IMG/VR virus record: IMGVR_UViG_3300028384_001121
Coordinates: 1-53,602 of that record
Direction: 5' to 3' (one strand)
From: a virus
Lineage: Duplodnaviria > Caudoviricetes
Length of the DNA stretch: 53,602 nt
A model generated the notes under the pieces. It was not told the origin of the DNA and ran no database searches. It saw only the letters and a list, made by a program, of their open reading frames with translations. Position numbers and translations under genes: made by a program. Below are positions 1 to 19,941 of the stretch, piece by piece (the stretch's first letter is position 1; each line of letters opens with the position of its first letter).

Positions 1-294
1 TTTGTAGGCAGCAGCAGATGCAGAAACTGCAGAGCCGTTGCTGTCAGTGTGGGCTGCAAAGCCAACAGACAAGGTGGTCGAACCTCCGAGCGCATCGTGG
101 GCCAGCTGGCCTTGAAGGATACGCGCACCATTCGGCAGAGCGAACATCTCAATGACATCACCAGATGCCAGCGAAGATGCCTCATATGTGCCGTGTGCTA
201 CGCGAACCTCGCCGCCAAATTCGTTGGCCTTAACGAAGCCGGAAGGGTCGTCCTGAGTCAGCGTGGTGCGCTGAGTGCTATATACAGTAGCCAT
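1..294 (-). CDS. Partial virion protein of the type that follows the major capsid gene in HTVC010P-like marine podoviruses (runs off the window edge; not in the ORF track)
   Basis: ATG at 294 with an open frame to position 1 (MATVYSTQRTTLTQDDPSGFVKANEFGGEVRVAHGTYEASSLASGDVIEMFALPNGARILQGQLAHDALGGSTTLSVG...), preceded by a strong SD (TAAGGAGGGCTTGAGATATG). Family assignment is from recalled similarity. Confidence 0.75.
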   Translation of the reverse strand, partial: MATVYSTQRTTLTQDDPSGFVKANEFGGEVRVAHGTYEASSLASGDVIEMFALPNGARILQGQLAHDALGGSTTLSVGFAAHTDSNGSAVSASAAAYK

Positions 295-302
295 ATCTCA
301 AG

Positions 303-311
303 CCCTCCTTA
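303..311 (-). promoter_or_regulatory. Shine-Dalgarno ribosome binding site
   Basis: TAAGGAGGG overlapping the stop codon at 309-311, 8 nt upstream of the ATG at 294. Confidence 0.8.
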
Positions 312-722
312 TGCCGATTCATCACATACGATGGAAACCAGCTTCTCTTCCTCCATACGGGTCGCCCCGAATGTGGCGCAGTAGTAAACCTGCGTGGAGT
401 AAGATTTATCGGCTCGCTCATCGATACGCGACATGACGTCTTTACCGACAGCCAGCTTGATGCCGTCTTCGGCCCAAGCAAAGCATGTGCGGTTATTGCC
501 GGACTTGGCGAGACGTGTCGAAACATGGAACTGGAAGCCCATGAACGTGTTGATCTCACCTTGAACCAGAGCTTTGACCGTATTGAAATCGCTACTGGTG
601 ACAGTCGTGCTGTTCAGCAGTGATTCAATCTGGTCAGGCCCGACGGCAATGTGACGCTGGATGGATGGGTCAACAGATGCAAGGTCAAGTGTCTTCTTGG
701 CCTCAATCAGTTTCGCCAGTGT
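309..722 (-). other. C-terminal 137 aa of an HTVC010P-type podovirus major capsid protein, fused in frame to the vRNAP ORF
   Basis: TLAKLIEAKKTLDLASVDPSIQRHIAVGPDQIESLLNSTTVTSSDFNTVKALVQGEINTFMGFQF...IDERADKSYSTQVYYCATFGATRMEEEKLV matches my recollection of that capsid family, and the downstream gene agrees. Confidence 0.8.
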
Positions 723-3700
723 CTGCGTATCCAGGCTAAAGTCATCGATATCTGTCTCAAGCAAGTCGTCAATCAAGTCATCACTCGCAACATCATTCTG
801 GTCCATTGACAGGTCCAGTGTCTTGATTGTCACTCCACGTGCTTTGGCATTCTTCTGGATCAAGTCCATAGTAAGTGCCGCCGCTTCGTGTGCGTATGTA
901 CCGGTCTTTACTTGCACTCCTAAGCCTTCAAGCATCTCACCGATATACTTTACGATACGGTCGAGCCATGTCTCGCTTTGGCTCAGCTTGATTTGACTCA
1001 GCTGTTGTGCAAACTCTGGACGAGAAAGCAACTCGGCTACCATCTCTTTCGCGCTGGTAAAGCCGTAGTACTTTTTCATATTCTCTTTGTCCATAGCGAA
1101 GTCATATGCCTCGCTAGCTACCAAGTCAGCTCGCATTGCCATCAGTGGCAGCTCACCGCTCAATACCTGCTTGCGCACTTGAATACCACGCTTGAACTTA
1201 TTGAGATCGTCCAGGTTCAGGCCCATCGCGTTCAACAGCTCTGGGCTTGTAGTCAGCTGGGTATATACCTTCTCGACTTTAGCAATCGCCTCCTTTACCT
1301 CTGCAGGCACACCTTTACGCTGTGCTGCATTCATAGACATTACATCTGAGGTATAGGCGTGTACCATTTCGTGCGCCAAGACGCGCACCAAGCGTGATGT
1401 ATTGCCAGACTCTACCAGCTGCTTCTGCAACTTCAGAGTATGTGTACCACGGTTGTATCCACCGACATTATCCATGTCTGCTACAACCACCTTTACCTGG
1501 CGCTCTTTTGGCAACCCAGCCTCGAAAGCTAGCAACTGACGCAACAAACGATTCTTCAGCACCCCATCGCCGATCTGCTGAGTCACAAACTCAGATACCG
1601 ACATCTCACGAGATTGACCTTGAGCTGCGGATTCCATAGCCGCTTGCTCAGCAGGAGACATTCCTTGGGGCACATCAGCCGCAGGTGCTGCAGGCATATC
1701 CATATTCTGCGCTGCCATCTCTGCTGGACTCATCCCTTGAGGAACATCACTTGAATCAGTGACACCAGTATGTTGCGGACGGCCTGGCTCTACATCATTA
1801 GTAGCATCCATGCCATTGACACGACTTGCCTTATTGGACTTGTTGATGTCCAAGGTGAACTTATGGTCCTCTTGAATATCCAGACCCGGTGTAAACTCCG
1901 TAGCGAAGTAGCTACCACCAGCAGGGTAGGGACCGCTGAACGCAAAGAACGAATCGCGTGTACCATTTGACACCTCCTGGACTTTGTACAAGCCTTTACT
2001 AGTACGGAACCAGCCCATGTATCGCATCTCGCGAGTCACCATGCCGTCTTTCACACGCTTCTTCTTGAAGTCCAGACGCTCTTTCATAGCTTCCTTATTC
2101 AAGTACTGCATATGCTCCGACATGTGCAGCATGATTTGGTCGTGCGCTGCCTCATCAGCACGCCAGCCCTCATAAATCTCGTGACTAAATCCAAGAGCTT
2201 CCTTGATGCCCAACTCCTGCAACAACTCTGCAGGCAAGTACTTACCGTATCCTTTAGATGCAAGCTGTCGTCCCTGTAAAAGGTGGTACACAACCAAGTC
2301 CTCAGCCAGTTGACGTACCGAAGCATCCTTCGAGGTAGCTAACGCCAAGAATGCTGCATGCATTTCAATTGGGCTGACATTCACCTGACGATCACCTTGG
2401 AAAGACACGCGTGGGTATCCCTTTGCCGGGTTCACTTCAGCAATCAAGTGCTTGATAAACAAGTTATTACGCACTTCTGCTTTGGCTGTCTTAGCACTGA
2501 TAAGTCTAGCAGCCATATTATTCTCACCGGTAAAGAACTCTTGACGCAATTCAGCCGCAGAACGTCCGCCTACCTTCTCTGCCCACTGTGCATAGAGGTA
2601 GCCCTTTGCCATATTGAGGTAGTCTTGAGCAAACTCTGGAGATAAGTACATATCCCCGGTACTGCTCTTATCCTCAGAATTCATCAGCTCTACCGCCTTA
2701 CCCATCATCTGCTGATACAGCGGAGTGCGGTATACTGACTCACCCGGCAAGTCTAAAACCTCTTGAATCATGGCATTCAAGTCTCTGTAGACCTGACCGG
2801 ATACCGTCATGCTCAACAGTTCCGACTCTAAGTTATCGACGGTCTCCTTCAAGCCTTTGGCATCAGCTCCTTGCGCTGTCTGCCGCAATGCTTGTGCTGC
2901 CACCTCGCGCTCCATATCAATCTCTGAGCGAGTCTTAGGCATCTTCGTATCAAACTTCATAGCCTTGGCAAACTTGCCTAACGCTCTGCCTACTTGATCC
3001 AGATTATTAAGCGCCATATGGAGTTGGTAGGTCATAGCCGCCTTATCCACTTCCGACATCTGCTCGCCCTGTACCATTGCGAGGAGGTCTGTTTTATTCA
3101 GACGCGGTAACCTACCGTTATTCAAAGCCTCAGACACTCTTTGAGCATTCTCGAATCCTGCTTCTTTTAAAGTATTCATCGCCTCACCAAGCATAGCCTC
3201 ATACTGAGAAGACTCCCGCGCACCTGTCAACTGACGTGATGCACTCTTATCCGCTGTAGCTGCTTGTACTAACGGGGTAGCCATGAAGATACCGATGGTC
3301 TCCATGTTATATCCCATGTTCGTCAACGCTGACCAGTAGCCCCAAGTCTGGCTATTGATATTCAGCTTAGCCAACAGCTGATTGTTTTCGTTATCTACCG
3401 CGTGGTTCAACAACCGGCTAAACTGCTCTTGACGGGTAATTTTCGTCGGCGCAGTTTCGTAGTCCAACAAGAATGTATCGTCATGGATATCAGTGACACC
3501 AAAGTAACGAGCCTTGTGAGAATCTTTCATCTCGTTGTCCCTATCAACTGCGATATCGACATGCAAGAGAACAGGCCCATAAGTCGTATCTCTCAAGTAT
3601 TGCATAGCTCCAACACCGGCAGACATCTGCTCAATCTGTGAGTGCAATACATTTTGACTAGCAAATACACCAATTGCATCCTTAGCACTACGCGCCACAT

Positions 3701-6700
3701 CAGCCTTCAGATCATTGTACTCATACGCCATAGGCATACCCGTAGCTTCACGCATCAACCCAAGCTGCTGACCCAACTCTTCGCTGTAGCCGTCAGTAAC
3801 AGGGCTATGACGTTCGAGTAGTGCCGTAGCATCTTGACTACGAAGACTTGCGTGGTACACATCAATCTGACGATTACGTGCTGACTTGCGGCGTTCCTCT
3901 GCCGTACCGACCTCAGAATCTCCTCGTGCCACTTGTAAGGCTCCATCCACAAGGGATGTCTCATACAAGAAGCCAAACATCTTATCGATATCGTAGTCCT
4001 GACCGATCTGTCCAACCAACTCTTCCGGTACAATCAGAGTATCTCCATAAGACTTAGGCAAGAAGCCTACAATCTCAAAGCTCGCTGAAGACGCTTTCTT
4101 TTGACCCGGAATACGATATGCCAACACCTGGAAAATCTCCTGTGGTAGGCTGTCCATATCGATTGTACCGTCCTCATTCTTGAACTGCTCCAACTGCCCC
4201 GCATACTTCCAAGGCATGATAATCTGATTGGGCTGCTCATATTCCGCAACCTTCAACTTCTTACCATTGAACAGCTTTGACTTGCCCTTCTTTACCCAAA
4301 CGATATCGCTTGCATCCATACCCTCGAGAGTCTGGTACTGCATACCTGTTTCGGGTCGGATAGGACCACTGAAGCCGCTAATCTTCGGCTCGATCAGTTC
4401 CTTACGCAAGATGCTAATCAGCAGCTGCTCGATACGCTGTGCACTTGGGCCTTGACTCAAAGGCGTAAAGAAGGTGCCCGTCTTTTCATCGTACTGCAGG
4501 TGAGCCAACTCGTTCACATCGTAGTTCCGGTCAATGGCCTCTTCTACAATACGTGCAGCCATACGCTTTGCATACTCCGGCCCCTGCACCAAGTTGCCGT
4601 TTTCTACACGCATACCGTACTTCTTCGCAAAGATGTCCATACGAGCGCGTTGCTCTTGAGATCTTGCCTCCATGTACTCGTAGTACAAGTCTCGTCCGCT
4701 TACCGTCTCACCGTCTAATTCAAACGTGACATCCTCAGTTGCCATGTTTGCAAGAATCAGCTTGGCTACCTGTGAGCCATGCACCTTTTCAGTAGACTTC
4801 GACACTGGTACTTCTTGCTGGATACGAACGCTTTCACGCTTGTATTGAATTACCTGATCTTTCAATCCGTCTTGGATGTCTACTTTACCTTCAGCATCGT
4901 GCACATCCACCATATCGGCGAACGGATTGCCCACCTTCAACGCTGAAGTGTATGCTGCCCGCTGAATGTTATTGGCCTCCATAAACTGGCGCAACTCATC
5001 CAATGACTGATTCTTGGTCAACCCAGGCACCAATGGGAAGGATGCACTCTTGATATACAAGAGGTGCCCATCTTTACGCTCTACGGTAACCGGCTTCATG
5101 GGCTGGAACCATCCTCGCTCTTGGTTATTTAATGGAACACCCTCATTAACCTTACGCAGAATGCCCTCGAACTCTTTACGTCCAATCTTGCCTTGTGCAT
5201 ACAGAATAGACAAGTGCTCTTCTGCAGTAGTGTACTCAGCAGCATCAGCGGTATCGTAACCACGATATGCATCTAACTGCTCCTCAGTCATACCCAACTC
5301 CTTCAAGTAGCTCAGGTGTGCAGACTCGGAAATCTTACGCTCTGGCATCACCAGGCTACGGACAGTCTTGTTATTGACGTCCTTCACTTCTTCAAGTACC
5401 GGCTTGCCATTCTTCAACACAGGCTTACCGTCTTCATCATAAGTAGCCCGCATTGCCGTATACGACACTTCTGGAATAACATTACCAGGCGCAATCAGAG
5501 CAGCAAAACGCTTACCCATGTTAGTTGCCGTCTGCTCTGCGCTACCCTTAGCAAAAGCTCCAGGGTCACCCAACAGTGCAGTAGTAACGTTCGTGTTGAA
5601 GTGCATCGCTTCAATGACATACTTCGCCACAAAGCCCATGAATGCATGTTGCTTATTCATAGGATTATCGCGGAAGTCGCTAGCCTCCATACCTACATGC
5701 CGACGCACATAGTCAAACTCTTTCTTTGAGGGGTCAAAGAAGTTAAATCGAGAAATAGTATTCTCTTCGCCCAGCTCGTACAGCATGCCCTCAGCATCCT
5801 CCATAGCCTTGCGGTAGGACTTATCTAATTGAGCTTCGTAAATGTCCCGAGCTGCTTTGTGAATCTCAGCATCAGTACGGTCTTGCATACCGTTCAGTGC
5901 AGGCATCAAGACAAAGCGATCGTTACGCTGCTGCTTGGCATCTAAAGTTGAGAAGACCTCACCCTTCTTCTTTGCCTGTACCGCCCGAATACGTGCCAGC
6001 TCCAAATCGATGCTTGCGCGGATGGTAGTATCGTAGGCTTCTTGCACATTAAAGAAGTCACTCACCCGGTACTCTGCAGGAAGAAGCTGTTCACTTGCTG
6101 GTTGAACAGTCAAGCCTTTCATCTTAAGAGTCAGCGATGGCACCTGAATCAAAGGCATTGTATGCTTGTCTGCCAGTGTCGGCATCATATGCCGGCTATA
6201 CATCTGACGGCCCCCATCGATATAGGTATTGTTATTACCGAAGTATGCCAGTCGTGCGAAGAGACGATCACCCGGCTCCATCTTGTGGAAGTCACGCACA
6301 TCGCCAAACCCTGCTAGCATCTTGATTCCATCGACATAGCCAAACTTGACATACGGACGATTCTTACGACGCCGCATGCTCATAAGCAATGGGTTATTAC
6401 GCAAGGTCCAATCAGCTTCCATATCTACCGCAAAGACCGCATTACCATTTGCGTCAGTTACAAGCTGCCCTTTCTCGTCAAGAACAGGTTCCATCAAATC
6501 TTGGAACATCTTCTGTGCATGCTTAGGAGCAGTGTATTGCCACCGCAGTTTGCCGCTACCGTCCTTACTACTATTCTGGACAAGGTTATCCTGGTAGTTA
6601 GACAAGACCGCAATAAACCCAGCGATAGCAGGACGTGCGCTTTGCCTATCCTGACCGGGATCAGTAATCGCTAAAGTCTTGTCATCCGATTCCAACGCCT

Positions 6701-9700
6701 CTTGCATCCCCATACGGAATGCCCCAAACAAGCTCTTAGCAGACTTAGGATTGACCAAGTCCTTCTCAATACCACGCATGACCTCAACGCCCAAACCAGA
6801 AGTCATCCGGTTACGGCTTGTCAAGGCTTGTGGCGGGATATTCATTCCCAGCTCAACAGCAAACAATCGGCTCAACTCTTGAGCAGCCTTTGCAGGGTCG
6901 CTGTTGTCTGTTGCAATCTTCTCCATTGCCGTGATGAAAGACTTCAACTTTGCATCATTCACCAATACAGTACCGTCTGGCTGACGAGTGTAGAAGCCTT
7001 TGATGATGAACTGGCTCTCCAGCTCTTTCATCACAAACTCTGTCATATTGGTATCGTTACTACTGAACTGGAACACATTTGCTGCCCGTCCAGAGTTCGG
7101 TCCCACTGCTGCCTCACCCTTGTCAACCTTTAGGCTCAAGAACTCCGCAATGTTCTTCGCCATACCGACTACAAACTGGTTGCGCATCATATCGATACGG
7201 TCTAGCTCATTCTCCTTAAACGCGCCACTTTCCACAGACGCGTCATCCAGAATGTTCAGAACCACCTGAAAGTATGGGTAGGTGCCTACATTTTCCTCCA
7301 AGCGCTTCTTCATTGCCGGCCAGTTATACTTAGCCCCAGCCATAGCTTGATTGAGATGCCCGATTAAAGTGCGCTGGTTCACAAACTTGCGACCTAACGC
7401 ACCTACAGTAGTTGCATTACTATGCACATGCTGCACAGTCATCAATGCCAGCTTCAGTTCAAAGCGTAAGGCTGCCTGTGGATCTACACCAAATGCGAAG
7501 TTGTCATCGAATGCAGCCATAGGATTGGCATCCCGCTCGATATCTTCTGCAGTCTTGGCTTGACCTTCTACCACCTCATCGCGATCCTGCTGCAATTCGC
7601 GCACAGCATCTGCCAGTGTACCAGCTTCAAGCTTTACAATACCACGTGACTCTCGCAGCAACTCCAAGAAGCCCAAATCCATCAAACGGTCGAAGCGATT
7701 GGCTTCCAGCATCTTATCGAACGTCTCGACAAAACGCTTTGCCTGCTCATACTTAGGATGCTCGGGCTGCTGAACTACCAGTTTAGCCGCTGCATATCCC
7801 GGCAACTCTAAGATATCATTACGAACCTGACGCTTAAGGTCATCTGCCTTGATTCCTTCGATACGACCAGTAGTCTTACTGTGCCGAAGCATACGTGTTG
7901 CCAGTCGCCCCGTGATAAAGTTCAGCGCATCTTGTGTAACCTTTTGCGCTAAACCTTCAACAGAATACAACTTGCCTGCACGCTGCATGGGGCTGTCCTC
8001 GTCGTAGTTCTCAGGCAACAAGTCCAAGTCTGCAAACTGCTCAAACTGCAAGAGCTGCTCTGGCGTAAGCTCTACTGGCTTGGCTTCTGTATCAGTGCGA
8101 TCCGTTGGCACTTCTACATCGCCCAACTCAATAGTCAGCCGCTCTACTGGATTACCGTAAGTCTTACCATCAATAACCAAAGGCACACGTTCGTCAAACG
8201 ACATGTGGTTCAAGTAGTACTGCTTAACGCTTACCGGACGATCGATTTGCACAATCCCCGTTTCACCATCAACCTTAAAGCCTTCAAAGACTTGGCTTAC
8301 ATTGTCACGGTGCTCAAACGAAGTATTGCGGCGCATAGCAGCAATACGCTTAACTGCCTGAGCCTGGAAGCTCTGATTTGACAGCTTGTGTGAGCGCAAG
8401 AAACTACGCATCTCCTTGCCAGTACTCTTTGACTCAAACGTTGCGACATCATCATAGATACGCAAGCCTGGATCAACAGCACTAGGGTAATAAATGAGAG
8501 CCGGGCGCTTACCAAAGGTTTTGTGCTCGGTAGACCCCACCTCACTATGTGTGCCGTTCTCGAGCATCAGGTACTGCTTAAGAACACTGTGAAAGCTATC
8601 GACCAGACGCTTGTTATCGATGACGCCTGCTGCATTGCGGATATCCCATCCAAATGCCTCCTCCATGTTCTTTACAGTCGCATTAGCTGCATCCAGTGTC
8701 AGACCCATAGATTGGTCCACCTTACCGGTGACAACTAAGGCAACAGCTCTTTCAGCGGTCAGCAAGCCAAACGCCAACTCGTCGCCAACCGCACGCATAT
8801 TAGCTGGGACGTAGAACAGGTCTCCACTCGCATTATCCTTGACAATCGCATATGGCTTACTCAGGATGTTCCGGCCGCTATTGGTCAGAGGTTCTGACGG
8901 CATTGTCATATCCGGACGGGTAAAGAACTGGAACTCCTCTTGCTGACCACGAGTGCTCCAAGCACCAATGTCTACGAGATTCTCTTCTGTCAATACACCC
9001 TTAGCATCACGAGGCTGTTCAATCCGCGTTCCTCCATACTGTGCCCGCGTAACAAACTTCACGCGAGCTGTACGTGGCTCAGCAAGAGACAAGAACAAGT
9101 CGTTTGTATCTGAAGTACGTGGCTCAGTGCGGAAGATGTTACCACGCACACTGTAGTGAATTACATCTGTCAAGACCCCATCCACTTCCTCTCGCCCCCG
9201 ACTCAGTGTCACCTCTTCTCCTACACGTACACCATTTTGTGTGATATCCTGGGATGCTTCTGGGTAGCGTGGGTTGAGCTGGCCCGTCATACGCGGGTCA
9301 TCTACCACCACCTTTAAGGTGTACTCCTTTTTCTCTAACGCAGGATTTTCTGGCTCACTGTTGTCTACAGGCTGGGCACTCTGCTGCTCCTCGTCTGCCA
9401 CCTGTGCTGGTGACTTGCCTTGAGGTTCAGTAGGCACTACAGCTACAGGCTTCTTTTGAGACGGATCTACATCCTCTGCAACCTCCTGCTGCGGCTCAAC
9501 CTCAGTCTGAGTATTTGCAGCTTCAGCCGGCGACACTCCCTCTGGTACCTCCGTAGTCTCAGGGGCTGGCTGACTCAAGTCTTCAAACATAGCAGCACTT
9601 GGTGGCTGAGAACCCGGAGGTCCATCCACATTATCAGGTGCTTGCTCGGCTTGCTGCTGGGCTTCTGCAGGCGACATACCCTGTGGCGTGTCTGGCGTTT

Positions 9701-12413
9701 CACCTAAGTCCGCCGCTTCAGCACGACGTTCTTCCTCCATTGCCTCTTCCTCCTCGTCCTCGTTACGCTTTACTACGGAACGCACACTGTTCTCCATACG
9801 TGCGATAAAGCGCTCGTAGCCTCCAGGCTTAGTCAAATCGTTGAACGCCTCAATCATTTCTTGACGATCACGTGCAACTTCACGCAAATCCTCACGGAGT
9901 TCCTCAATCTCAGTCATATCTACCTCAGTAACTCCACGCTTGCCCATAGCAGCAAGAGCACGATTGTAGTTTACCAAGTCATCCAGCTGCTGATTGAAGC
10001 CTTCTAAATCGTAGTTATATGCGCCTGCTTTACCCTTAGCCCGGTACCCTTTCCGCAGTGCCTCTTTTTTGTCAAGCAGCTCCTTCAGTTTTGCGTTGCG
10101 CTCCTCGCTCTGTTCAGAAGACTCTACCTCATCAATTTCGTCCTCAATAGCCGTGAGCTTGTCAATCTGCGCTTGAGTCATACTAAGCTCTAACTCAAGC
10201 TGCGTACCGTCTAAAATGGCTTCACCATTCATGCCTTTGATTCGCTCTGCTAACGATTCGGCAATTGCCTTCTCACGAGCATCGCGGTCCTTGGTATTGT
10301 ACACCAAGTTGGCAATAGCGTTGAGAGCGTCATGATTTTCGCCACGATAGATCTCTCTAGCCTTACGGTAGGCATCCCGCACCTCATTCATACGATTAGA
10401 GTACTGCTCGTATGCTTGAGTTTTGCGCGAACGCAACTCCTCATCAGTCATGTCCTGTGCAGCAGGCCCTAACATTTCACGGTAGTCTTCCACAGACATA
10501 CTATCAAGAAGCTCTTTGGCTTCAATCATGCTGTCCTCAAACCGACCAGTAAGAATCTTACTGCTAGCATGAGAGAAGATAGAATTGGCTTCATTGTCCT
10601 TGAGACCTTTGAAGTCATTCTGGTTCGCCATGACATCTGCCTGACGTACCAACCCTCGCTGCGTAATAGCGTTATTCAACTCAGCAGCTAAGTGCTTACC
10701 TACATCACCCTCTTGCTCGTGCAGCTTGATGATGCGATCCATCACAGCATCTCGCTCAGCATTGTCTTTCCGCACCTGAGTAAAGCCACCCACAAATGCA
10801 GGACGTACTTTCTTACCTGTTTCAGGGTCGACCTCACTGTAAGCATTGGCAATCATAATGTTAGGAATACCAAAGGCTCCCAACAACATACCAATACCTA
10901 CCTCTTTCAAACCTTCAGCCGTACCATAACTACCCTTGATACCTTCAACAAAACTGCTGACAAGGTTTTCAGTGTCTTTATGGTTACGGGGGTCATAGCG
11001 GTGTGAGATATAGTCCTCAAAGCCTCGACTAATCACACCCTGTCCACCCTCTTCAACTAAACCTTCATAGAGTGCAGTACCTGCTACACCGGTACCTGGT
11101 GTCAAACGACGTAAGTTTCGACCTGTTCGTGTAGCGCGGCTTGCATCTACGAGACGAGGTAGCTGTCCCTCTTTGACACCCATACGCTTAGCCATCTGCT
11201 GGCGTGCCTTAGCAGTCAGCTTAGTGGTGTCAACAAACTTAGTCTGGCGCAAACCATTTCGTAGGCCACTGCCAAAAAGCTTCGGGAACATCAGCATGTT
11301 CGAAGCTCCTACCAGTGCCATATTCGTCATAAACGCAGTATTACCGTATCCAGTAATCTCATCACGGAATGCTGCCTCCATTTCTGGAGTGTAAGAGCCT
11401 TCGCCATTCTCCAACTCGTACTCACGCTTATGATCTTCGCCCGCTGCGTTCATCATGTGACGAGCTTCCATACCAGCCTCCATACCAGCACCAGTAAGCA
11501 ACTGACGACTCATACGTCCTGCTGCCGTTAAACCTGCTTTACGCGCTCCAGCTGCACCGCTTGCACGAAGTCCTGCCTCTGCTGCTTCACGAGTAGCCGA
11601 AGATGCCAACTGCGCTTCTGCTCGAACCACATCATCCAAAAGCTGTGTGCCAATAACTCGCTTACCGCCAGTCACTGCCTTCTTCAATAGACGTGTGCCT
11701 CTTGCAACAATACCAGCTGTAGCCGCAGCCTGAGCAGGCGCAGCGCCTCCCAAAGTCAGTGCCGTAGCCGCTGTCATTCCTAGCTCAGTGAGAATTGCAC
11801 CAGCCACAAACGACACACCACCAAGAACGTCATCAAATACAAAGTTGGTAACCTGCTGCATCCCGCTTTGATTACCACCACGCTTAATATCAAAGTACTT
11901 ATCGTACTCTTCTTGCGCACTATCTAAAGCGTTAGAAACCGCGTTGTCGTAAATCTTATGGAACTCGCCATTGACCACCATACTAGGCAAGCCATAGAGC
12001 AGCGTTGCAAAGCCTTGTGCAACATTGATGCCGGTGTCCCCTACAAACTGGAACATACCGTTGCGAATCTTTTCTAAGTTGCCCTGTGCAGCTTGAGAAC
12101 GATTGTAAACATCCTCAATACCCGTATTGGTAAAGCCGTCATCCAACCCACTTACGCGAGTAGACATGCCGCCCAACCACTTCTGATCCTTGAACTGGTC
12201 AAAGTCAACGTCTTGTTGCGCATCAAAAACATTATTGATTCCAAAGACACCATCCTTAGATTCATACAGCATATCACTGAACTGACCTAAGTCTAATTCA
12301 GAGCTTTTCTGTTCCTCTACGGGTTCCGGTTGACCCTGCAATGCATCACGAATCTCGTCTTCAGTGATGTTAGTATGCAAGCCAAGGTTTACGAGATTGT
12401 TTTTATCAGCCAT
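309..12413 (-). CDS. Giant virion-packaged RNA polymerase polyprotein: N-terminal cargo region, two-barrel RNAP core, zincin protease, and a foreign capsid-like C-terminus
   Basis: ~4030 aa. GQDYDIDK catalytic-type motif at 3981-3998, preceded by YRIPGQ. HEMVH at 1359-1373 with downstream EMVAE. Hydrophobic Gly/Ala helices near the N-terminus. Lies after the cargo genes as in crAss-like phages. ATG at 12413 preferred over TTG at 12422. Confidence 0.88.
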   Translation of the reverse strand: MADKNNLVNLGLHTNITEDEIRDALQGQPEPVEEQKSSELDLGQFSDMLYESKDGVFGINNVFDAQQDVDFDQFKDQKWLGGMSTRVSGLDDGFTNTGIEDVYNRSQAAQGNLEKIRNGMFQFVGDTGINVAQGFATLLYGLPSMVVNGEFHKIYDNAVSNALDSAQEEYDKYFDIKRGGNQSGMQQVTNFVFDDVLGGVSFVAGAILTELGMTAATALTLGGAAPAQAAATAGIVARGTRLLKKAVTGGKRVIGTQLLDDVVRAEAQLASSATREAAEAGLRASGAAGARKAGLTAAGRMSRQLLTGAGMEAGMEARHMMNAAGEDHKREYELENGEGSYTPEMEAAFRDEITGYGNTAFMTNMALVGASNMLMFPKLFGSGLRNGLRQTKFVDTTKLTAKARQQMAKRMGVKEGQLPRLVDASRATRTGRNLRRLTPGTGVAGTALYEGLVEEGGQGVISRGFEDYISHRYDPRNHKDTENLVSSFVEGIKGSYGTAEGLKEVGIGMLLGAFGIPNIMIANAYSEVDPETGKKVRPAFVGGFTQVRKDNAERDAVMDRIIKLHEQEGDVGKHLAAELNNAITQRGLVRQADVMANQNDFKGLKDNEANSIFSHASSKILTGRFEDSMIEAKELLDSMSVEDYREMLGPAAQDMTDEELRSRKTQAYEQYSNRMNEVRDAYRKAREIYRGENHDALNAIANLVYNTKDRDAREKAIAESLAERIKGMNGEAILDGTQLELELSMTQAQIDKLTAIEDEIDEVESSEQSEERNAKLKELLDKKEALRKGYRAKGKAGAYNYDLEGFNQQLDDLVNYNRALAAMGKRGVTEVDMTEIEELREDLREVARDRQEMIEAFNDLTKPGGYERFIARMENSVRSVVKRNEDEEEEAMEEERRAEAADLGETPDTPQGMSPAEAQQQAEQAPDNVDGPPGSQPPSAAMFEDLSQPAPETTEVPEGVSPAEAANTQTEVEPQQEVAEDVDPSQKKPVAVVPTEPQGKSPAQVADEEQQSAQPVDNSEPENPALEKKEYTLKVVVDDPRMTGQLNPRYPEASQDITQNGVRVGEEVTLSRGREEVDGVLTDVIHYSVRGNIFRTEPRTSDTNDLFLSLAEPRTARVKFVTRAQYGGTRIEQPRDAKGVLTEENLVDIGAWSTRGQQEEFQFFTRPDMTMPSEPLTNSGRNILSKPYAIVKDNASGDLFYVPANMRAVGDELAFGLLTAERAVALVVTGKVDQSMGLTLDAANATVKNMEEAFGWDIRNAAGVIDNKRLVDSFHSVLKQYLMLENGTHSEVGSTEHKTFGKRPALIYYPSAVDPGLRIYDDVATFESKSTGKEMRSFLRSHKLSNQSFQAQAVKRIAAMRRNTSFEHRDNVSQVFEGFKVDGETGIVQIDRPVSVKQYYLNHMSFDERVPLVIDGKTYGNPVERLTIELGDVEVPTDRTDTEAKPVELTPEQLLQFEQFADLDLLPENYDEDSPMQRAGKLYSVEGLAQKVTQDALNFITGRLATRMLRHSKTTGRIEGIKADDLKRQVRNDILELPGYAAAKLVVQQPEHPKYEQAKRFVETFDKMLEANRFDRLMDLGFLELLRESRGIVKLEAGTLADAVRELQQDRDEVVEGQAKTAEDIERDANPMAAFDDNFAFGVDPQAALRFELKLALMTVQHVHSNATTVGALGRKFVNQRTLIGHLNQAMAGAKYNWPAMKKRLEENVGTYPYFQVVLNILDDASVESGAFKENELDRIDMMRNQFVVGMAKNIAEFLSLKVDKGEAAVGPNSGRAANVFQFSSNDTNMTEFVMKELESQFIIKGFYTRQPDGTVLVNDAKLKSFITAMEKIATDNSDPAKAAQELSRLFAVELGMNIPPQALTSRNRMTSGLGVEVMRGIEKDLVNPKSAKSLFGAFRMGMQEALESDDKTLAITDPGQDRQSARPAIAGFIAVLSNYQDNLVQNSSKDGSGKLRWQYTAPKHAQKMFQDLMEPVLDEKGQLVTDANGNAVFAVDMEADWTLRNNPLLMSMRRRKNRPYVKFGYVDGIKMLAGFGDVRDFHKMEPGDRLFARLAYFGNNNTYIDGGRQMYSRHMMPTLADKHTMPLIQVPSLTLKMKGLTVQPASEQLLPAEYRVSDFFNVQEAYDTTIRASIDLELARIRAVQAKKKGEVFSTLDAKQQRNDRFVLMPALNGMQDRTDAEIHKAARDIYEAQLDKSYRKAMEDAEGMLYELGEENTISRFNFFDPSKKEFDYVRRHVGMEASDFRDNPMNKQHAFMGFVAKYVIEAMHFNTNVTTALLGDPGAFAKGSAEQTATNMGKRFAALIAPGNVIPEVSYTAMRATYDEDGKPVLKNGKPVLEEVKDVNNKTVRSLVMPERKISESAHLSYLKELGMTEEQLDAYRGYDTADAAEYTTAEEHLSILYAQGKIGRKEFEGILRKVNEGVPLNNQERGWFQPMKPVTVERKDGHLLYIKSASFPLVPGLTKNQSLDELRQFMEANNIQRAAYTSALKVGNPFADMVDVHDAEGKVDIQDGLKDQVIQYKRESVRIQQEVPVSKSTEKVHGSQVAKLILANMATEDVTFELDGETVSGRDLYYEYMEARSQEQRARMDIFAKKYGMRVENGNLVQGPEYAKRMAARIVEEAIDRNYDVNELAHLQYDEKTGTFFTPLSQGPSAQRIEQLLISILRKELIEPKISGFSGPIRPETGMQYQTLEGMDASDIVWVKKGKSKLFNGKKLKVAEYEQPNQIIMPWKYAGQLEQFKNEDGTIDMDSLPQEIFQVLAYRIPGQKKASSASFEIVGFLPKSYGDTLIVPEELVGQIGQDYDIDKMFGFLYETSLVDGALQVARGDSEVGTAEERRKSARNRQIDVYHASLRSQDATALLERHSPVTDGYSEELGQQLGLMREATGMPMAYEYNDLKADVARSAKDAIGVFASQNVLHSQIEQMSAGVGAMQYLRDTTYGPVLLHVDIAVDRDNEMKDSHKARYFGVTDIHDDTFLLDYETAPTKITRQEQFSRLLNHAVDNENNQLLAKLNINSQTWGYWSALTNMGYNMETIGIFMATPLVQAATADKSASRQLTGARESSQYEAMLGEAMNTLKEAGFENAQRVSEALNNGRLPRLNKTDLLAMVQGEQMSEVDKAAMTYQLHMALNNLDQVGRALGKFAKAMKFDTKMPKTRSEIDMEREVAAQALRQTAQGADAKGLKETVDNLESELLSMTVSGQVYRDLNAMIQEVLDLPGESVYRTPLYQQMMGKAVELMNSEDKSSTGDMYLSPEFAQDYLNMAKGYLYAQWAEKVGGRSAAELRQEFFTGENNMAARLISAKTAKAEVRNNLFIKHLIAEVNPAKGYPRVSFQGDRQVNVSPIEMHAAFLALATSKDASVRQLAEDLVVYHLLQGRQLASKGYGKYLPAELLQELGIKEALGFSHEIYEGWRADEAAHDQIMLHMSEHMQYLNKEAMKERLDFKKKRVKDGMVTREMRYMGWFRTSKGLYKVQEVSNGTRDSFFAFSGPYPAGGSYFATEFTPGLDIQEDHKFTLDINKSNKASRVNGMDATNDVEPGRPQHTGVTDSSDVPQGMSPAEMAAQNMDMPAAPAADVPQGMSPAEQAAMESAAQGQSREMSVSEFVTQQIGDGVLKNRLLRQLLAFEAGLPKERQVKVVVADMDNVGGYNRGTHTLKLQKQLVESGNTSRLVRVLAHEMVHAYTSDVMSMNAAQRKGVPAEVKEAIAKVEKVYTQLTTSPELLNAMGLNLDDLNKFKRGIQVRKQVLSGELPLMAMRADLVASEAYDFAMDKENMKKYYGFTSAKEMVAELLSRPEFAQQLSQIKLSQSETWLDRIVKYIGEMLEGLGVQVKTGTYAHEAAALTMDLIQKNAKARGVTIKTLDLSMDQNDVASDDLIDDLLETDIDDFSLDTQTLAKLIEAKKTLDLASVDPSIQRHIAVGPDQIESLLNSTTVTSSDFNTVKALVQGEINTFMGFQFHVSTRLAKSGNNRTCFAWAEDGIKLAVGKDVMSRIDERADKSYSTQVYYCATFGATRMEEEKLVSIVCDESA

Positions 12414-13938
12414 TGATGCCAAGGTTCTTCATGATTTGCATGCCTAAGATCTGACGAACTTCTGCTTCACTCGATACAATAACAGATTTTCCTCCTACCG
12501 TTGCACGTGTACCATCCTGATTATAGATAGCAAACATGCCGTCTTCTTTCCTTACGTCAAGTTGTGCAACTCCAGAGCTAAACTCATTCACCTCATTGTT
12601 TGCTGCGAAGGCATGCAAATCTGGAGCATACATCGAGCCATACATTGGAATTGCAGCCCGCCGCACCACGCTCGTAGACTGGTTGAAATTAGCAAGCTGT
12701 GCGTTAAAGCCGCCCATATTCTCAGTGACGTTGGCAATATCACCAGCATTCATCTCAACGTAAGTCTTACCCCCAGCAATACGATTGCCCTTGCTATCCA
12801 CAGTTTTCATATTCAACTCGAGTACGGGTAAGCCATTAGGTCCGACATTACCGGTTAGTCGCACCGCTTCAATGTCATCATCGCTAATGGGTTGTGACGA
12901 ACCTTTGCGCGGTACAAAGTTGTTGAATTCGTCTAACGGTACAATATCCCTATCACCTTGATACAAGAAACGCAACTGGTTATCTAAACCGCTGTCTTTT
13001 GCCTGGTCATCAAAGCTAATAGTCACCTGATCCGGGCTTTCTAAATCTCCATCGGTAATCACAGAACCTCCTTGACCGCTGGCAAGAATTGATTTGTTCT
13101 TAAGACCGCTATACATACCTCCGCTGTCGAAGTCCGTCTTGCTTGCACGGCCTCCACCTAAGTAACGCTTACCGGTTGTATACAGCTGGTTTTGCAACTC
13201 CTGAATCACCATGCCCTTTTCCTCATTCGTCAGTCGAGTGTATGGTACAGCTTCCCCCCCGCGTTGACGTGCAGAAATCTGCTGAGCTAAGAAGTTTACA
13301 TGCGTCCGCCCGCCTGGTGTTCCCTGGTAGTAGTTCAGTGCGCCGTTCTCAGGGTCTTGAATAAATTCTTGCAAAGCGGCATCGCTCTTTACGATGTCCG
13401 TATTGCTACGGAAGACCTGATCCATTGCCTTACCAAAGTCTGGGATACGCGTAGGAACTCCATTGAACTGGCGCACCTCATTAGTATTCGGGTCTACCGT
13501 ACTAAAGAACTGGCCCATATCCCCGTCCATCATTACGTTCTCCGTTCCTAACTGCGCAACCAAGGCACGGTACTTAGTATCAGCTTCCTGATAGCGCTTT
13601 GTGTTATTACGTACTGCCGCGTATGTCTGGTCTCCCATCATGTCGGAAACCATCTTCTTGATTTGACGAGAATACCCGGGCAAGTTCTTTTCCTTACTTG
13701 CCTGCTCGATACTCGCGTCGACCTGATTCCACATATTTTGCAGATAGGCTTTGTCTCCTTCTGGAGCCGCCGCAATCTGGTCCGCAAGAACCTGCTTCAT
13801 CTTGCTTGTAGCTTGCTGAGTCTGCATAGCCTGCCGATCTAAACGATCGTACAGCCGCGCTACAGATTGTGTAGGTACGCCCACCATACTGGGCTTGTAC
13901 TCAACGAATTTCGGAATCTGTGGTAAGTATACAGCCAT
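12406..13938 (-). CDS. Putative cargo (ejected internal virion) protein
   Basis: 510 aa with a helical N-terminal half, immediately upstream of and overlapping the vRNAP gene, as in crAss-like gene order. Confidence 0.6.
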   Translation of the reverse strand: MAVYLPQIPKFVEYKPSMVGVPTQSVARLYDRLDRQAMQTQQATSKMKQVLADQIAAAPEGDKAYLQNMWNQVDASIEQASKEKNLPGYSRQIKKMVSDMMGDQTYAAVRNNTKRYQEADTKYRALVAQLGTENVMMDGDMGQFFSTVDPNTNEVRQFNGVPTRIPDFGKAMDQVFRSNTDIVKSDAALQEFIQDPENGALNYYQGTPGGRTHVNFLAQQISARQRGGEAVPYTRLTNEEKGMVIQELQNQLYTTGKRYLGGGRASKTDFDSGGMYSGLKNKSILASGQGGSVITDGDLESPDQVTISFDDQAKDSGLDNQLRFLYQGDRDIVPLDEFNNFVPRKGSSQPISDDDIEAVRLTGNVGPNGLPVLELNMKTVDSKGNRIAGGKTYVEMNAGDIANVTENMGGFNAQLANFNQSTSVVRRAAIPMYGSMYAPDLHAFAANNEVNEFSSGVAQLDVRKEDGMFAIYNQDGTRATVGGKSVIVSSEAEVRQILGMQIMKNLGING

Positions 13939-13940
13939 GA

Positions 13941-16900
13941 TTATTGTTGTCTGTAGCCAGTAATATTACCTGCAGCATCATAAATAGGCACCATGCCCCC
14001 TTGAGATTGACCTCCGGTTGCAGCTTGTTGTGCATTCATTGCTCCAGTATCAAACTGGCGGCCAATGCCCTCAAGGGTATTAGCCATGTTAGTCTGGTAG
14101 ATATTCTTTAAGTAGTCCTGTGCAGCCCCACTAATAACATTCAGTGGCTGTTGCTTTACTGCTGCTTGAGCTTGCGTCATAGCATTGTCAAAATTAACCT
14201 GATCCTGCGCATACTGATTCAACATCGCGTTGTTCGTATTCCGAACCTGATTTGCCATCATCTCGTAGCGATTCAGTGCCTGCTGACGCATCTGGTCATC
14301 TGTCTGACGGATACGTGCTTCTTGCTGCAAACGCTGAGTATTCAAACTCTGCGCAAGTGCCGCTTGCTGAGTACCCTGCAAGTTGGTGTTTGCACCGGCA
14401 GCGCGTGAAGCCTCACGAGCATCCATCAACTGTTGCCCCACATTACTGCGGTAATCAAAGTTTGCAATTGTGTTGAGGTTAGGACGAGCTGGGCCTTCCA
14501 TAGAGTTTAAAGCACGCCGCTGGACACCTGCACTAGCTAAACTCGCTAAAGCTGGTACTGCCATAAGCGGAGACATCTTACCCATATCGATGTTGTACTT
14601 ATCGCCCTCACCCATGTCAAAGTCCTTAAGAGGAGTTTCATCAGGCAACCCAGCTACCTTCTCACCTCCTATCTCTTCTCCACCTCCAACAGGGTCGGTC
14701 TTCACTGGTGGCACTGTATCGATACCATCATCCAAAACGTCCCCTGTTACTCCGCTTGTATCCGGAGCCTGACTACCAAACTGACGTGGGTCAAACTGCG
14801 GGAAGTATGTCATACCGGCCTGCAAGCCCAGTCGCTCCAATGCCAACGGTGTACGTGTAAAGATGTTTCCTCCAATACCAGAGGCGCGTTCGATGGTAGG
14901 AATCTGACCCATTGCATCGTCTGCCAAGCCTACTACACCTCTTTGCATAGCGGACCGAGCAGGTAAGCCAGTCATAGGGTTCACTGGCGCTAATGCAGTA
15001 GATCCCTGACGTGTCGTTTGTAACCCAACATTCCGTACTGCAGGAAGACGTGAGCCAGGTAATGACAACCCTCCAGGTTGCACACCACCAAACTGCCCAC
15101 CTTTGCCCCCTGCACTACCTGCAGGCATTCTAAACTGCCCGCGATTTACACCAAGAATACCACCGGCACCATCGTCTAATACATTGACCCCTGACTGACG
15201 AATCTGTTGCTCAGCTGTCAGTGCTCCCGTCTTTGTTTTCGATACTGGAGTAATATCAATCGTCCGGCCTGCAGCATTACGTGCAGGTACATATGTTGGA
15301 GACTGTCCCTGCGCACCCGTGCCAGGCTTAAACTTCATTCCGGGCACTCCCTTTACAGCAGGTCCAGCACTACCCTGTGGCAGCATCTTTTGACCCTGCC
15401 CCAAAAGCTTGGTTTCTTGTGCTACCGCTAAATTCAGCGCAGCGTCATCACCAGCTTGCAACGCCGCTACTGCATCATCTCCTAAGCTACGCCCAAGAGC
15501 TGCACTCCCACGCGATACGGCAGCACCACGGGCAGCAGTAACTGCACCAGGTGCAATAAACTGACCTGCCAAACCATATGTTTGCTGGCGGTTTTGAAAG
15601 CGAGTTTGGAAGTCAGCATTACCCGTATTGTAAGCTACGTAATCACTGTATGGGCTGTACCCACCAACACCTACGCGCTCAGTACCCGACTCATCAGTAA
15701 ACTTAAATGTACCGGGGTTAGCTGCAATCTCTGCATAGATTGCTTCCATCTCGCGATCATACCGCTTCTTATCCTCAGGGTCGGTAGAGGTAGTCGTATA
15801 TGACTTACCCATATCACCCATCATGCGGTTATATACCTTCTTAGCAGGCTTAATCCCGCGCTGTTCAGCTACCAGGCTTGCCACCTCCTTAAAGGACATA
15901 CCCATACCGGATTGCAACTCAGATTCCTGCCCACCGCCAATCGTCATTGAGACCATAGCAGCGTCCATATCCAAGCTCATATTTTGCTGAGTAGGATCTG
16001 CAAAAACTGATGCAAATAGAGATGCTCGGTCTCCATCCGTTGCCGGCCCATCTACATCATCCAAATACGGAATAGCAGAAGACAGGGACTCTTGGATAGA
16101 TTCTGGACCTTTCCAGTCTTTGGCTCGAATAACATACTTGCCCTGGAAGCCAGAGCTGCCAACGCGACCGTATCCACCCTCTAAGTTGCCAAAAGCCTTA
16201 TCCGGAACAATGACATTATAATCGCCAAACTCATTACGAGCATAGGTGATATTAGAACCAGCAATATTATTGCCCGTTTCTGTTGCCTTAGCAGAGTTAA
16301 AGTCTAACCCAACTAAGTCCATCCCCTCCCTTTCTTGAGCCAATCTCGAATCTGCTTGTGCAACGGGAGGCACACCTCCTCCATCTTGTCCAAGTACCGC
16401 AGCCTTCTCTTGCTGCGCTTCAGGACTTAACATGAAGTCCGGAGTATTCATTAAGCCCGGGTCAGGAGCTGCCGCAGATTGTGATGCTGAAGTAGCCGGT
16501 ACAGCCTGTTGTGCAAACTGTTGCATCTTACCCATAGCCGAAGAGTACTGGTCATACGTCTCAGCCATTTTAGCGGGATCTTGAGCAGTCGACTTTGGCA
16601 GTGTACCGCCAGATGCAACGACCGCATAGGTTCCATTAAGAACTTCTTGAATTTGCTCAGGAGTTGGGTTAGGCGTACTCAAATCAAAATCTACATACCC
16701 CTCTACTCCCTTACCACTTTCCGCTGTAAAGTATGCAGCGGCAGCCCCAGCTACCTTGTCATCTAACAACAAATCGGGGTTCTTAACCAGGCGGTCATCT
16801 CCATACACAGCCTGACTAACGCGACGGTAGTTTTCCTTACCGGTTACTTGAACTAAGCCACGGCCTCGATACTTATAGCCGTCCCCTTCAGCACTATTAC

Positions 16901-17441
16901 CCGCGACATCATCGTATACAAAGTTGAAGAACTTTTCAGGATCAGCTTTAAGAGCATTTAGATCCTCGTCGGACATATCCTTGAACTTCCTTTTGAAGCG
17001 GGAATTAAGTGTTCTAATACGTTCATTAGACGTATTAGCATAGTTCATCTCCTCTCGCGTACCCGAACCTCCACTTTCTTTCTGCGTTACTGCCGCTACT
17101 GCCGCAGCAATCGCCGGACTCATACCGTACTCAGCTGCAAGCGTATCAACCATAGCTTGCTGTGCTCCTGTAATACCGAACCCACTAGCGCCAGTGCCAC
17201 TTGCACTACCGCCTAAGTTCATCTGTTGCACTGGCTGTGGCTGCTTACCTACACGCATCTCCTCATTCTTACCCTGCAAAGCTGCCAAAGCACTCTTGCC
17301 CTTTTTCATATTAAGCCGCGCACTATTGGCGAGCGGTCCTACAGGATAGCGGCGCAGAGTTTCCTCTTGCTTCGAGATATATGCCGCAAGCTGTTGAGCA
17401 ACCTCGGCGGGCGTCATCATTTTTTTCTTCTTGCGACTCAT
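13941..17441 (-). CDS. Cargo protein with a GH19 (chitinase/lysozyme-like) peptidoglycan hydrolase domain
   Basis: KESGG...GDGYKYRGRGLVQVTGKENY...LVKNPDLL is the phage GH19 signature. The C-terminus is Gln/Asn/Ala-rich and helical. Confidence 0.8.
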   Translation of the reverse strand: MSRKKKKMMTPAEVAQQLAAYISKQEETLRRYPVGPLANSARLNMKKGKSALAALQGKNEEMRVGKQPQPVQQMNLGGSASGTGASGFGITGAQQAMVDTLAAEYGMSPAIAAAVAAVTQKESGGSGTREEMNYANTSNERIRTLNSRFKRKFKDMSDEDLNALKADPEKFFNFVYDDVAGNSAEGDGYKYRGRGLVQVTGKENYRRVSQAVYGDDRLVKNPDLLLDDKVAGAAAAYFTAESGKGVEGYVDFDLSTPNPTPEQIQEVLNGTYAVVASGGTLPKSTAQDPAKMAETYDQYSSAMGKMQQFAQQAVPATSASQSAAAPDPGLMNTPDFMLSPEAQQEKAAVLGQDGGGVPPVAQADSRLAQEREGMDLVGLDFNSAKATETGNNIAGSNITYARNEFGDYNVIVPDKAFGNLEGGYGRVGSSGFQGKYVIRAKDWKGPESIQESLSSAIPYLDDVDGPATDGDRASLFASVFADPTQQNMSLDMDAAMVSMTIGGGQESELQSGMGMSFKEVASLVAEQRGIKPAKKVYNRMMGDMGKSYTTTSTDPEDKKRYDREMEAIYAEIAANPGTFKFTDESGTERVGVGGYSPYSDYVAYNTGNADFQTRFQNRQQTYGLAGQFIAPGAVTAARGAAVSRGSAALGRSLGDDAVAALQAGDDAALNLAVAQETKLLGQGQKMLPQGSAGPAVKGVPGMKFKPGTGAQGQSPTYVPARNAAGRTIDITPVSKTKTGALTAEQQIRQSGVNVLDDGAGGILGVNRGQFRMPAGSAGGKGGQFGGVQPGGLSLPGSRLPAVRNVGLQTTRQGSTALAPVNPMTGLPARSAMQRGVVGLADDAMGQIPTIERASGIGGNIFTRTPLALERLGLQAGMTYFPQFDPRQFGSQAPDTSGVTGDVLDDGIDTVPPVKTDPVGGGEEIGGEKVAGLPDETPLKDFDMGEGDKYNIDMGKMSPLMAVPALASLASAGVQRRALNSMEGPARPNLNTIANFDYRSNVGQQLMDAREASRAAGANTNLQGTQQAALAQSLNTQRLQQEARIRQTDDQMRQQALNRYEMMANQVRNTNNAMLNQYAQDQVNFDNAMTQAQAAVKQQPLNVISGAAQDYLKNIYQTNMANTLEGIGRQFDTGAMNAQQAATGGQSQGGMVPIYDAAGNITGYRQQ

Positions 17442-18481
17442 CGAATCATAGATAAAATGTCACTAGCATCGAAGCGCATCTCCGGTGCATCACTAAATAC
17501 ATATGGGCTATCATGCTCTTGCCCCTGCGCGTCTACAAATGGTTCCGTTGCACCTTTAGTAGGTACTCCTCCCATTTCATGACTTGGACCGTTAGCACGG
17601 TACAGATTTTTACTGATACGATTATAGCCCCCTTGACCCATTGCCACTGGCGGGTCGTTAGGCGAAGCTAAGATAACCTCATTCTTTTCAGTTTCATAGT
17701 CGGGCTGCCCCATAGGACCGCCCATCCGCGCCATATAAGAGTCTACCATCTGGCCCTGGTCGTCATACATGTTCTTAATCTGACGGCTGTACTCAAGTGT
17801 ATTCTCTAAGCGCAACTTATTGTTTTCTTTAGCACGCTTCAGCTTATCACGCTGTGCTTTTTGTTCTGCCGCTTTCTTCTTGTATACAGAGTACAAGGCC
17901 CCACCTACCAAAGCAAACGGCGCCACACCTGGAATCATAGAAGCATAAGGCAAGGCAGCTCCAGCTCCACTAAGCGCACCACTTGCACCAGTCAGCAAGT
18001 CGCCTCCAAGATTTTCCTCATTAGCACGATCAGTATTACCAATAGCTGTGCCTAAAGCATTCAAGCCAGCAGATGCAGCAGCAATTTTAGCTTGCCGCAT
18101 ATTAAACTGCTCCATAGCTTCAGGTACTTCACCCGGCGCTAAGTCTGTCATATCTACTTGAGGCCCTACTAAGCGCTCTAACAAACCCGGAGTTGCACTA
18201 CTCGTAGTACCTGGAGCAGCTCCCGGAAACTGTATGCTAGATTGTGGGGCAAACGGATTGAACTGCTGTCGCTGATAAGCACCATACTCTTGGTCTAGCT
18301 GCCCTGAATAATCCATATACGGGCCACCAAGATATTTCTTGTTTACTGCCGGCTCTGTTGTAAAGTTCTTAGGCCGCTTCTTTGCTTTAGGCTTGGCACG
18401 ACGGCGCCCATCTGGACCCGTACCTAACAATAGGTCAGTCAGATTACGCCGTTCACACCGGTGTCCATTAAATTTCTTCAT
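17438..18481 (-). CDS. Putative cargo protein
   Basis: 347 aa with a glycine-zipper-like hydrophobic segment (GASGALSGAGAA...ALVGGAL), a coiled coil, and GPSHEMGGV...YVFSD, which I recall from crAss-like internal proteins. Confidence 0.65.
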   Translation of the reverse strand: MKKFNGHRCERRNLTDLLLGTGPDGRRRAKPKAKKRPKNFTTEPAVNKKYLGGPYMDYSGQLDQEYGAYQRQQFNPFAPQSSIQFPGAAPGTTSSATPGLLERLVGPQVDMTDLAPGEVPEAMEQFNMRQAKIAAASAGLNALGTAIGNTDRANEENLGGDLLTGASGALSGAGAALPYASMIPGVAPFALVGGALYSVYKKKAAEQKAQRDKLKRAKENNKLRLENTLEYSRQIKNMYDDQGQMVDSYMARMGGPMGQPDYETEKNEVILASPNDPPVAMGQGGYNRISKNLYRANGPSHEMGGVPTKGATEPFVDAQGQEHDSPYVFSDAPEMRFDASDILSMIR

Positions 18482-18609
18482 CCGCTACAGCTTTCGCAGT
18501 CATCAGGGTTTTCAATATTGCATGTAATCTCGCCGTTCTTAAGCTTGTCTTCCGACTTCTTAAGTTTTTCCGGGTCGAGAAAAGAGATGTCAAATTCTTC
18601 TTCTTTCAT
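18478..18609 (-). CDS. 43-aa peptide ending in C-x7-CxxCSG
   Basis: ATG at 18609 is 4 nt after the upstream stop, and its TGA overlaps the next ATG (ATGA). Sequence MKEEEFDISFLDPEKLKKSEDKLKNGEITCNIENPDDCESCSG. Confidence 0.7.
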   Translation of the reverse strand: MKEEEFDISFLDPEKLKKSEDKLKNGEITCNIENPDDCESCSG

Positions 18610-18613
18610 GAGA

Positions 18614-18919
18614 TTAGCATTTCCAACGTCGGCGAGCCTGACGAATACGTGAATTAGGATTATTACGAGTCTTAGCACTAGAACGCTTAAGCTGTCCTAA
18701 AGATCGTGCACAATATGACTTGCGACGCTTAGCAGCCTTACTACCCTTTTTGACCTTACCAGTAACAGCCGTCTTGAGCTTACTGCCTGGGTTTGCCTTG
18801 CGATAGGCACGTACACCTTTGGCAGTCATTCCCGCACCTTTTTTGGTTGGGCGGTAGTTGGCTCCCTTGCCTTTGGTCGTTTTCCGTATCGGATTCGATT
18901 TGCGTCGTTTGGTTGCCAT
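18614..18919 (-). CDS. Small highly basic protein (DUF6321-like)
   Basis: K/R-rich with GAGMTAKGV...NPGSKLK...RRKSYCARS...RRRWKC. TAATG coupling to the upstream gene. Confidence 0.75.
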   Translation of the reverse strand: MATKRRKSNPIRKTTKGKGANYRPTKKGAGMTAKGVRAYRKANPGSKLKTAVTGKVKKGSKAAKRRKSYCARSLGQLKRSSAKTRNNPNSRIRQARRRWKC

Positions 18920-19125
18920 TACTTGTCCATTTGATTGCGCGCAAGAAGGAGCTTAATCTCTGCCAGATCACTTGCAAGTTGTTCCAAAGAGCGCTCAATC
19001 TTCTTGTTGCCATTTTCCAAAGAGTATACGCGACTAGTCAACTTGGTAACTTCCCCATGTAGTTTTACATAGACGCCCACCAAGCCAACAGCCAGCAGAA
19101 TTAGTTCGTAGTCCGTAAGATCCAT
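18919..19125 (-). CDS. Small single-TM plus coiled-coil protein
   Basis: Hydrophobic LILLAVGLVGVYV followed by a heptad pattern. TAATG coupling on both sides. Confidence 0.7.
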   Translation of the reverse strand: MDLTDYELILLAVGLVGVYVKLHGEVTKLTSRVYSLENGNKKIERSLEQLASDLAEIKLLLARNQMDK

Positions 19126-19881: not shown

Positions 19882-19941
19882 AGTAGTAAGTAAAGTGAGA
19901 GCGCGTACTGAAATTCTATATCCTTGGCTACTTATTCTCGA

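Follow-up and report, generated by a model that had tools for sequence, protein, structure and literature searches.

The largest open reading frame (ORF) of the IMG/VR virus record IMGVR_UViG_3300028384_001121 appears to fuse the virion RNA polymerase of a crAss-like phage to the capsid protein of an unrelated podovirus. The stretch analyzed here (the window) is the whole record, 53,602 bases long, classed as linear with an estimated completeness of 67% (CheckV). We consider it very probable that the window is a chimeric, misassembled contig and that the polymerase-capsid "fusion" is an artefact; this judgement covers artefacts as a whole, including the subtype in which templates are switched in vitro. 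The 4037-aa fusion protein is thus almost certainly not a real feature but the product of an ordinary misassembly. Positions 1–702 are foreign to the rest of the record, the two parents share an exact word at the joint, each parent exists separately with its own continuation, and the tail is missing from homologues of the polymerase. Based on this pattern, we infer that assembly (or library preparation), rather than an event in a cell, produced the switch.

The ORF in question (309..12422, minus strand; 4037 aa) runs uninterrupted across the joint, which lies 722 nt from the record end. The sequence ...DIDDFSLDTQ passes straight into TLAKLIEAKKTLDL..., with the T of TLAKLIEAKK at window position 722, and the last 137 residues (722..312) are followed by a TAA stop at 311–309. 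A preliminary description of this DNA, made from the letters alone, had reported that the 4037-aa ORF continues without a stop into a 137-aa tail at TLAKLIEAKK and that a strong Shine-Dalgarno (SD) site and a further ORF (294 to 1) follow. Both are present as described: the SD site AAGGAGGG sits 8 nt before an ATG at 294 that opens a 98-codon ORF. The features around the joint are as follows.

1..294, minus strand: 5′ part (98 codons) of the gene downstream of the capsid gene in the podovirus, open at the record end (phrog_486, E 4e-10; the podovirus loci L004–L007 each align by blastn with this part and the capsid tail at once)
303..310, minus strand: AAGGAGGG, the Shine-Dalgarno site for the podovirus gene; shares bases with the stop TAA at 309–311 (read directly)
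312..702, minus strand: C-terminal part of a podovirus major capsid gene of the HTVC010P type, the residues after TLAKLI (PF19821; identities to pelagiphages and IMG/VR contigs)
703..723, minus strand: crossover point, an exact 21-nt word present in both parents, whose genes use one and the same frame here (TLAKLI, then the beginning of a further codon; alignment and contig flanks)
724..12422, minus strand: first ~3900 codons of the giant protein bearing a crAss-like virion RNA polymerase, cut short by the join (identity to the relative G001; 6vr4_A; DYDID)

Similarity of both its segments assigns window 1–722 to an unrelated marine podovirus of the HTVC010P type. The 137-aa tail matches PF19821 (Phage_capsid_2) at 153.4 bits (cut-off 25; E 1e-44) over profile positions 153–293 of 293; positions 1–152 are missing, and the tail would therefore represent half a capsid fold with no evident function. 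It also matches phrog_3437, a major head protein (E 6e-41), while the 98-aa ORF that follows matches phrog_486, a virion structural protein. By tblastn the tail matches 124 GenBank phage records. Those at 60–80% identity number 21, all of them Pelagibacter phages of the HTVC010P kind with the matches lying under annotated capsid genes, and the tail shares 61–70% identity with their capsid proteins. Podovirus contigs in IMG/VR come closer, with up to 93% aa identity to the tail, and single blastn alignments to such contigs run across window 1–722 at up to 85% nt identity, extending from the capsid C-terminus over the intergenic SD into the next gene. The tail therefore resembles a capsid protein of the HTVC010P type in its PF19821 match, in its 61–70% identity and in being followed by the next gene as in podovirus contigs, but differs in comprising the C-terminal half only and in having uncultured IMG/VR contigs, rather than cultured pelagiphages, as its nearest kin. 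The preliminary description had recognized both segments as resembling the major capsid protein C-terminus and next gene of such podoviruses, which the PF19821, phrog_3437 and phrog_486 matches bear out. Its suggestion that 1–722 comes from a different virus, joined near 722, likewise agrees with a left part collinear with podoviruses and a right part that is crAss-like.

The remainder of the record is a crAss-like phage (Crassvirales), as judged from a crass-type capsid with a matching portal and terminase. The phage's own capsid gene at 44179–45606, already picked out in the preliminary description, matches PF23898 (Crass_capsid; E 7.6e-83), and the record also encodes a portal and a large terminase (matches to phrog_11589, phrog_6547 and phrog_6681, E 4e-94 to 2e-148). 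A blastn search with window 723–4700 found no match in the GenBank phage collection, so that the crAss-like part had to be compared without a close relative from culture.

The giant protein encoded upstream of the tail is a predicted crAss-like virion RNA polymerase, an assignment based on similarity to a solved structure and a DxDxD-type motif. Residues 2356–2819 match the DNA-dependent RNA polymerase PDB 6vr4_A (E 2.1e-20), and the motif, DYDID, lies at residues 2809–2813 and is kept in the relative G001. A DFDxD catalytic motif is named for the crAss-like virion RNA polymerase in bioRxiv 10.1101/2020.03.07.982082. The protein thus resembles gp66 of Cellulophaga phage phi14:2 (PDB 6VR4) both in sequence match and in a DYDID that fits DFDxD. 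The two differ in size: the solved chain of the phi14:2 polymerase has 2194 residues, whereas the intact protein here, as read from G001, has 4969 aa, with long extra regions that include an HExxH region and a 1062-aa C-terminal part. The HExxH region corresponds to what had been called a zincin domain in the preliminary description. It is a candidate domain only: the motif HEMVH is present at residues 3684–3688 (region ~3650–3690), and the SprT-like Pfam match scores 23.0 bits, below its cut-off of 25.6.

The native continuation of this protein can be read from G001, a crAss-like record that aligns with window 724–20000 at 92% nt identity. Of window 1–722, G001 holds only a 20-nt word and a 15-nt chance match, and no PF19821 match was found anywhere in its 53 kb. 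Its giant ORF encodes 4969 aa (L091:130–15039, minus strand) and corresponds to window 724–12422 plus ~3.2 kb missing from the window. In a BLASTP comparison with the window ORF, 3785 of 3910 residues are identical (97%) without a gap; similarity then ends, and past the junction the G001 protein runs on for ~1063 residues. Neither Pfam nor PHROG yields a match in the last 1062 aa. Beyond the polymerase gene (L089, G001:3300–23299), a single further ORF on the minus strand of G001 (584 aa) precedes a long run of ORFs on the plus strand; this part of the genome is missing from the window's record.

Homologues from a protein database tell the same story at the junction. We searched a large protein collection with G001 residues 3640–4300, which straddle the junction, and scored 1333 candidates. 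Four homologues were found (100, 65, 42 and 34% identity; 2830–5152 aa), each covering 98–100% of the query. After TLAKLI or its equivalent, all four keep a conserved DYK.KRIRE.KEMRSRY block, at which the window departs into capsid sequence, and none of the four has a capsid match. The native C-terminal region is thus conserved in homologues down to 34% identity. The preliminary description had named the presence of the tail in intact polymerase homologues as the observation that would speak against a foreign origin; instead, 4/4 share a different conserved continuation. A search of IMG/VR with the native C-terminal 1062 aa returned only G001 itself and one 47%-identical contig, which is cut at its end and so cannot show a link to the polymerase.

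The breakpoint coincides with an exact word that both parents contain. When the window was aligned with the corresponding locus of G001 (L002) and a podovirus locus (L003), it tracked the former down to the junction and the latter beyond it, and ACACT(G/C)GCGAAACTGATTGA was common to all three. The exact word occupies window 703–723 (21 nt) and occurs once in the window; on either side of it, the parent strains differ at the very first base. The word gives TLAKLI in the reading frame of either parent gene, so that no stop interrupts the ORF at the join. Alignments to other records break at the same place. A blastn search of window 1–1500 against all loci fetched to that point, leaving out the record's own locus (L001), gave 82 alignments, of which 77 end at or before 730 (podovirus loci) and five begin no earlier than 700. 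The top four of these five all belong to G001, with which the window aligns from 703 on. None of the 82 spans 690–740.

For two random genomes of 80 kb and 35 kb, ~0.001 common exact 21-mers would be expected. In a community of very many genomes, however, such coincidences should occur, and an assembler working with short words would be expected to find them. An exact scan for the 21-mer in IMG/VR and a metagenome collection, which requires identity and therefore misses variants of the joint, found it in three further contigs, the podovirus contig L083 and two unrelated ones (L084 and L085), with chimeric flanks in none of the three. The two unrelated metagenome contigs carry the word (L084:416–436 and L085:8573–8593) with flanks identical to each other, evidence that in large collections a word of this kind can turn up repeatedly by chance.

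Contigs from four public runs, all from other samples, also separate the two parents at this word. On the podovirus side, two studies each supply a contig (X3, 508 nt; X8, 2491 nt) that agrees with the window from 409/415 to 723; beyond that point, both have the same divergent loose end. Read by hand, this end codes for HQIAAGSADL, which agrees at 9 of 10 residues with the HQIANGSADL upstream of TLAKLI in L003. On the crAss-like side, a contig in X4 shows 0 differences from the window over 703–760 and diverges from it below 703, where the reverse complement of its loose end (taken by hand) matches the native continuation in L002 at 27 of 30 bases, with all three differences synonymous (DYKRKRIREL). 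No piece with 31 letters on both sides of the word was present among the 27 listed of 31 pieces, and none of the 20 runs holding sampled words of window 1–1500 held half or more of them. Metagenomes in which the parents' sequences occur include marine, seawater, aquatic and estuary runs; the small word shares there are no evidence of habitat. The uncovered parts of window 757–2500 in X1, X3 and X8 are uninformative. One X8 contig has a joint of its own ("481 to 696"), which we set aside as a probable strain or repeat effect, its shorter side being 21 letters.

Base composition and translation signals change at the joint as well. The GC content of 1–722 is 0.539, above that of all 73 other 722-nt windows (mean 0.477, sd 0.020). 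GC skew was rejected as evidence, since 3/73 windows are as high as or higher than 1–722. Among 36 ORF starts examined for a strong SD (GGAGG, AGGAG or AAGGAG at −22..−4), the single positive is the podovirus ORF; the crAss-like starts have 0/35, in keeping with the preliminary remark that nothing comparable precedes the crAss-like genes, and two of these 35 have a weak SD (minus strand, window 12406–53248). This difference suggests hosts that differ in how translation is initiated, which would make co-infection unlikely.

A short repeat at the junction reflects chance similarity between two unrelated genes and was not created by the join. The preliminary description had pointed to AGACACTGG and the peptide KTLDL as repeated at the junction and about 100 nt upstream, and both copies of each are there: AGACACTGG on the minus strand at 716–724 and 815–823, KTLDL at residues 3867–3871 and 3910–3914. 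The upstream KTLDL is also present in G001, which has no second copy, and is thus native to the crAss-like parent, while the downstream KTLDL also follows the word in L003 and L083 and is native to the podovirus parent. Since each copy belongs to its own parent, the repeat was rejected as a recombination signal.

The contig probably formed in the following way. The crAss-like path would have ended or thinned out at the junction, and the assembly would then have crossed through the common 21-mer (703–723) to the path of a co-occurring podovirus of the HTVC010P type. On this path the contig would extend another 722 nt, past the capsid C-terminus and the SD and into the following gene, where it would stop. 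The 4037-aa ORF would be a spurious by-product, and the polymerase gene should run ~1063 codons further. An assembly chimera at a contig end was the cause favored in the preliminary description, and two unrelated sets of kin meeting in an exact common word support that choice. Chimeric contigs in viral metagenome assembly are a subject of benchmarking (PMC3901335, PMC4247695, PMC5610896). Like other chimeric contigs from short-read metagenome or virome assemblies, this one joins unrelated genomes at a short exact word near a contig end, has parents that are found separately with their own continuations, and changes in composition at the joint. Nothing essential differs; what is unusual here is that the word is read in the same frame, so that the artefact resembles a fusion protein.

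Several points weigh against placing the switch in the assembly. The run evidence comes from contigs of other samples, not from reads of the source sample, and contigs drop rare variants, so that a rare recombinant would be compatible with the run data. The native continuation at high identity is known from one close relative only (G001), and an identity of 21 nt could equally guide genuine microhomology-mediated recombination. Furthermore, 21 is a common smallest k-mer of short-read assemblers, but one that the assembler behind this record need not have used.

Alternatively, the joint could have arisen by template switching at the 21-nt word during library preparation or whole-genome amplification and been faithfully assembled afterwards, in which case it would still be an artefact. 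The crossover lies at a common word, as such switching needs, and both parents are marine phages whose sequences occur in the aquatic runs described above. However, amplification yields such a chimera as one molecule, which would seldom prevail over both native paths in an assembly, and this origin is unlikely.

Very unlikely is a real recombinant, in which podovirus DNA replaced the last ~1063 polymerase codons and whatever followed them at a 21-nt microhomology. Phage genomes are mosaic, the frame is kept across the joint, and the stop codon of the ORF is that of the capsid gene. Yet frame keeping is automatic when both genes read the word in the same frame, and the attached piece is half a capsid fold, gained at the cost of a C-terminal region that is conserved down to 34% identity. 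The tail is missing from G001 and from 4/4 homologues, both parents occur with their native continuations in other samples, and no other contig of the scanned collections has the joint. The contrast in SD usage (0/35 crAss-like starts versus the podovirus gene), from which different hosts may be suspected, adds to the difficulty, and a biological joint would have to lie 722 nt from the contig end by chance. A true inter-lineage recombinant, which the preliminary description had kept as its alternative, found no support, and the repeat it had linked to the junction is incidental. That the tail is instead a native capsid-like C-terminal domain, acquired by this polymerase lineage long ago, has next to no probability: the open frame alone speaks for it, but it is refuted by G001, whose 97%-identical protein lacks the tail, and by the homologue comparisons, and it fits poorly with the 93% aa and ≤85% nt identity to present-day podovirus contigs, which extends over the intergenic SD and the next gene, and with a GC content in the tail region that departs from the rest of the record.

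If the contig is a misassembly, as we favor, the left end of a public viral record consists of 702–722 nt from another virus, and the largest ORF of the record has a false end. Through the 4037-aa protein, protein databases and surveys of domain architecture would acquire a polymerase-capsid combination that is false. The true protein, read from the close relative G001, has 4969 aa. For curation, positions 1–722 should be trimmed, the polymerase ORF marked as 3′-partial and the 4037-aa protein kept out of databases. The record also illustrates clearly how a misjoin at a 21-nt common word can leave the reading frame intact. Were the recombinant real, by contrast, it would combine parts of two unrelated structural modules in one genome, and its virion polymerase would have a conserved C-terminal stretch of 1063 residues replaced by half a capsid protein.

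Further observations concern the giant ORF itself and its neighbors. The listed TTG start (12413–12422) overlaps the upstream ORF at 12406–13938, and translation more probably begins at an ATG three codons further in (residue 4, MADKNN). An identical database protein (P0005) has 4966 aa, or 4969 minus 3. Five copies of a P.G.SPA[EQ] motif (e.g., DVPQGMSPAE) lie in two minus-strand clusters at window 9402–9686 and 1647–1742, corresponding to residues 913–1007 and 3561–3592, within stretches rich in Pro, Glu, Ala and Gln. All five are kept in G001; a role as linkers between domains or as processing sites is conceivable. Beside the polymerase gene, a 1166-aa protein (13941–17441, minus strand) has an endolysin/chitinase-like region at residues 139–330 (phrog_181, E 3.5e-26, with a Glyco_hydro_19 match below cut-off) and may be a virion-borne wall hydrolase. 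An exonuclease-like gene (37802–39028, minus strand; phrog_284, E 1.3e-19) lies within the structural block.

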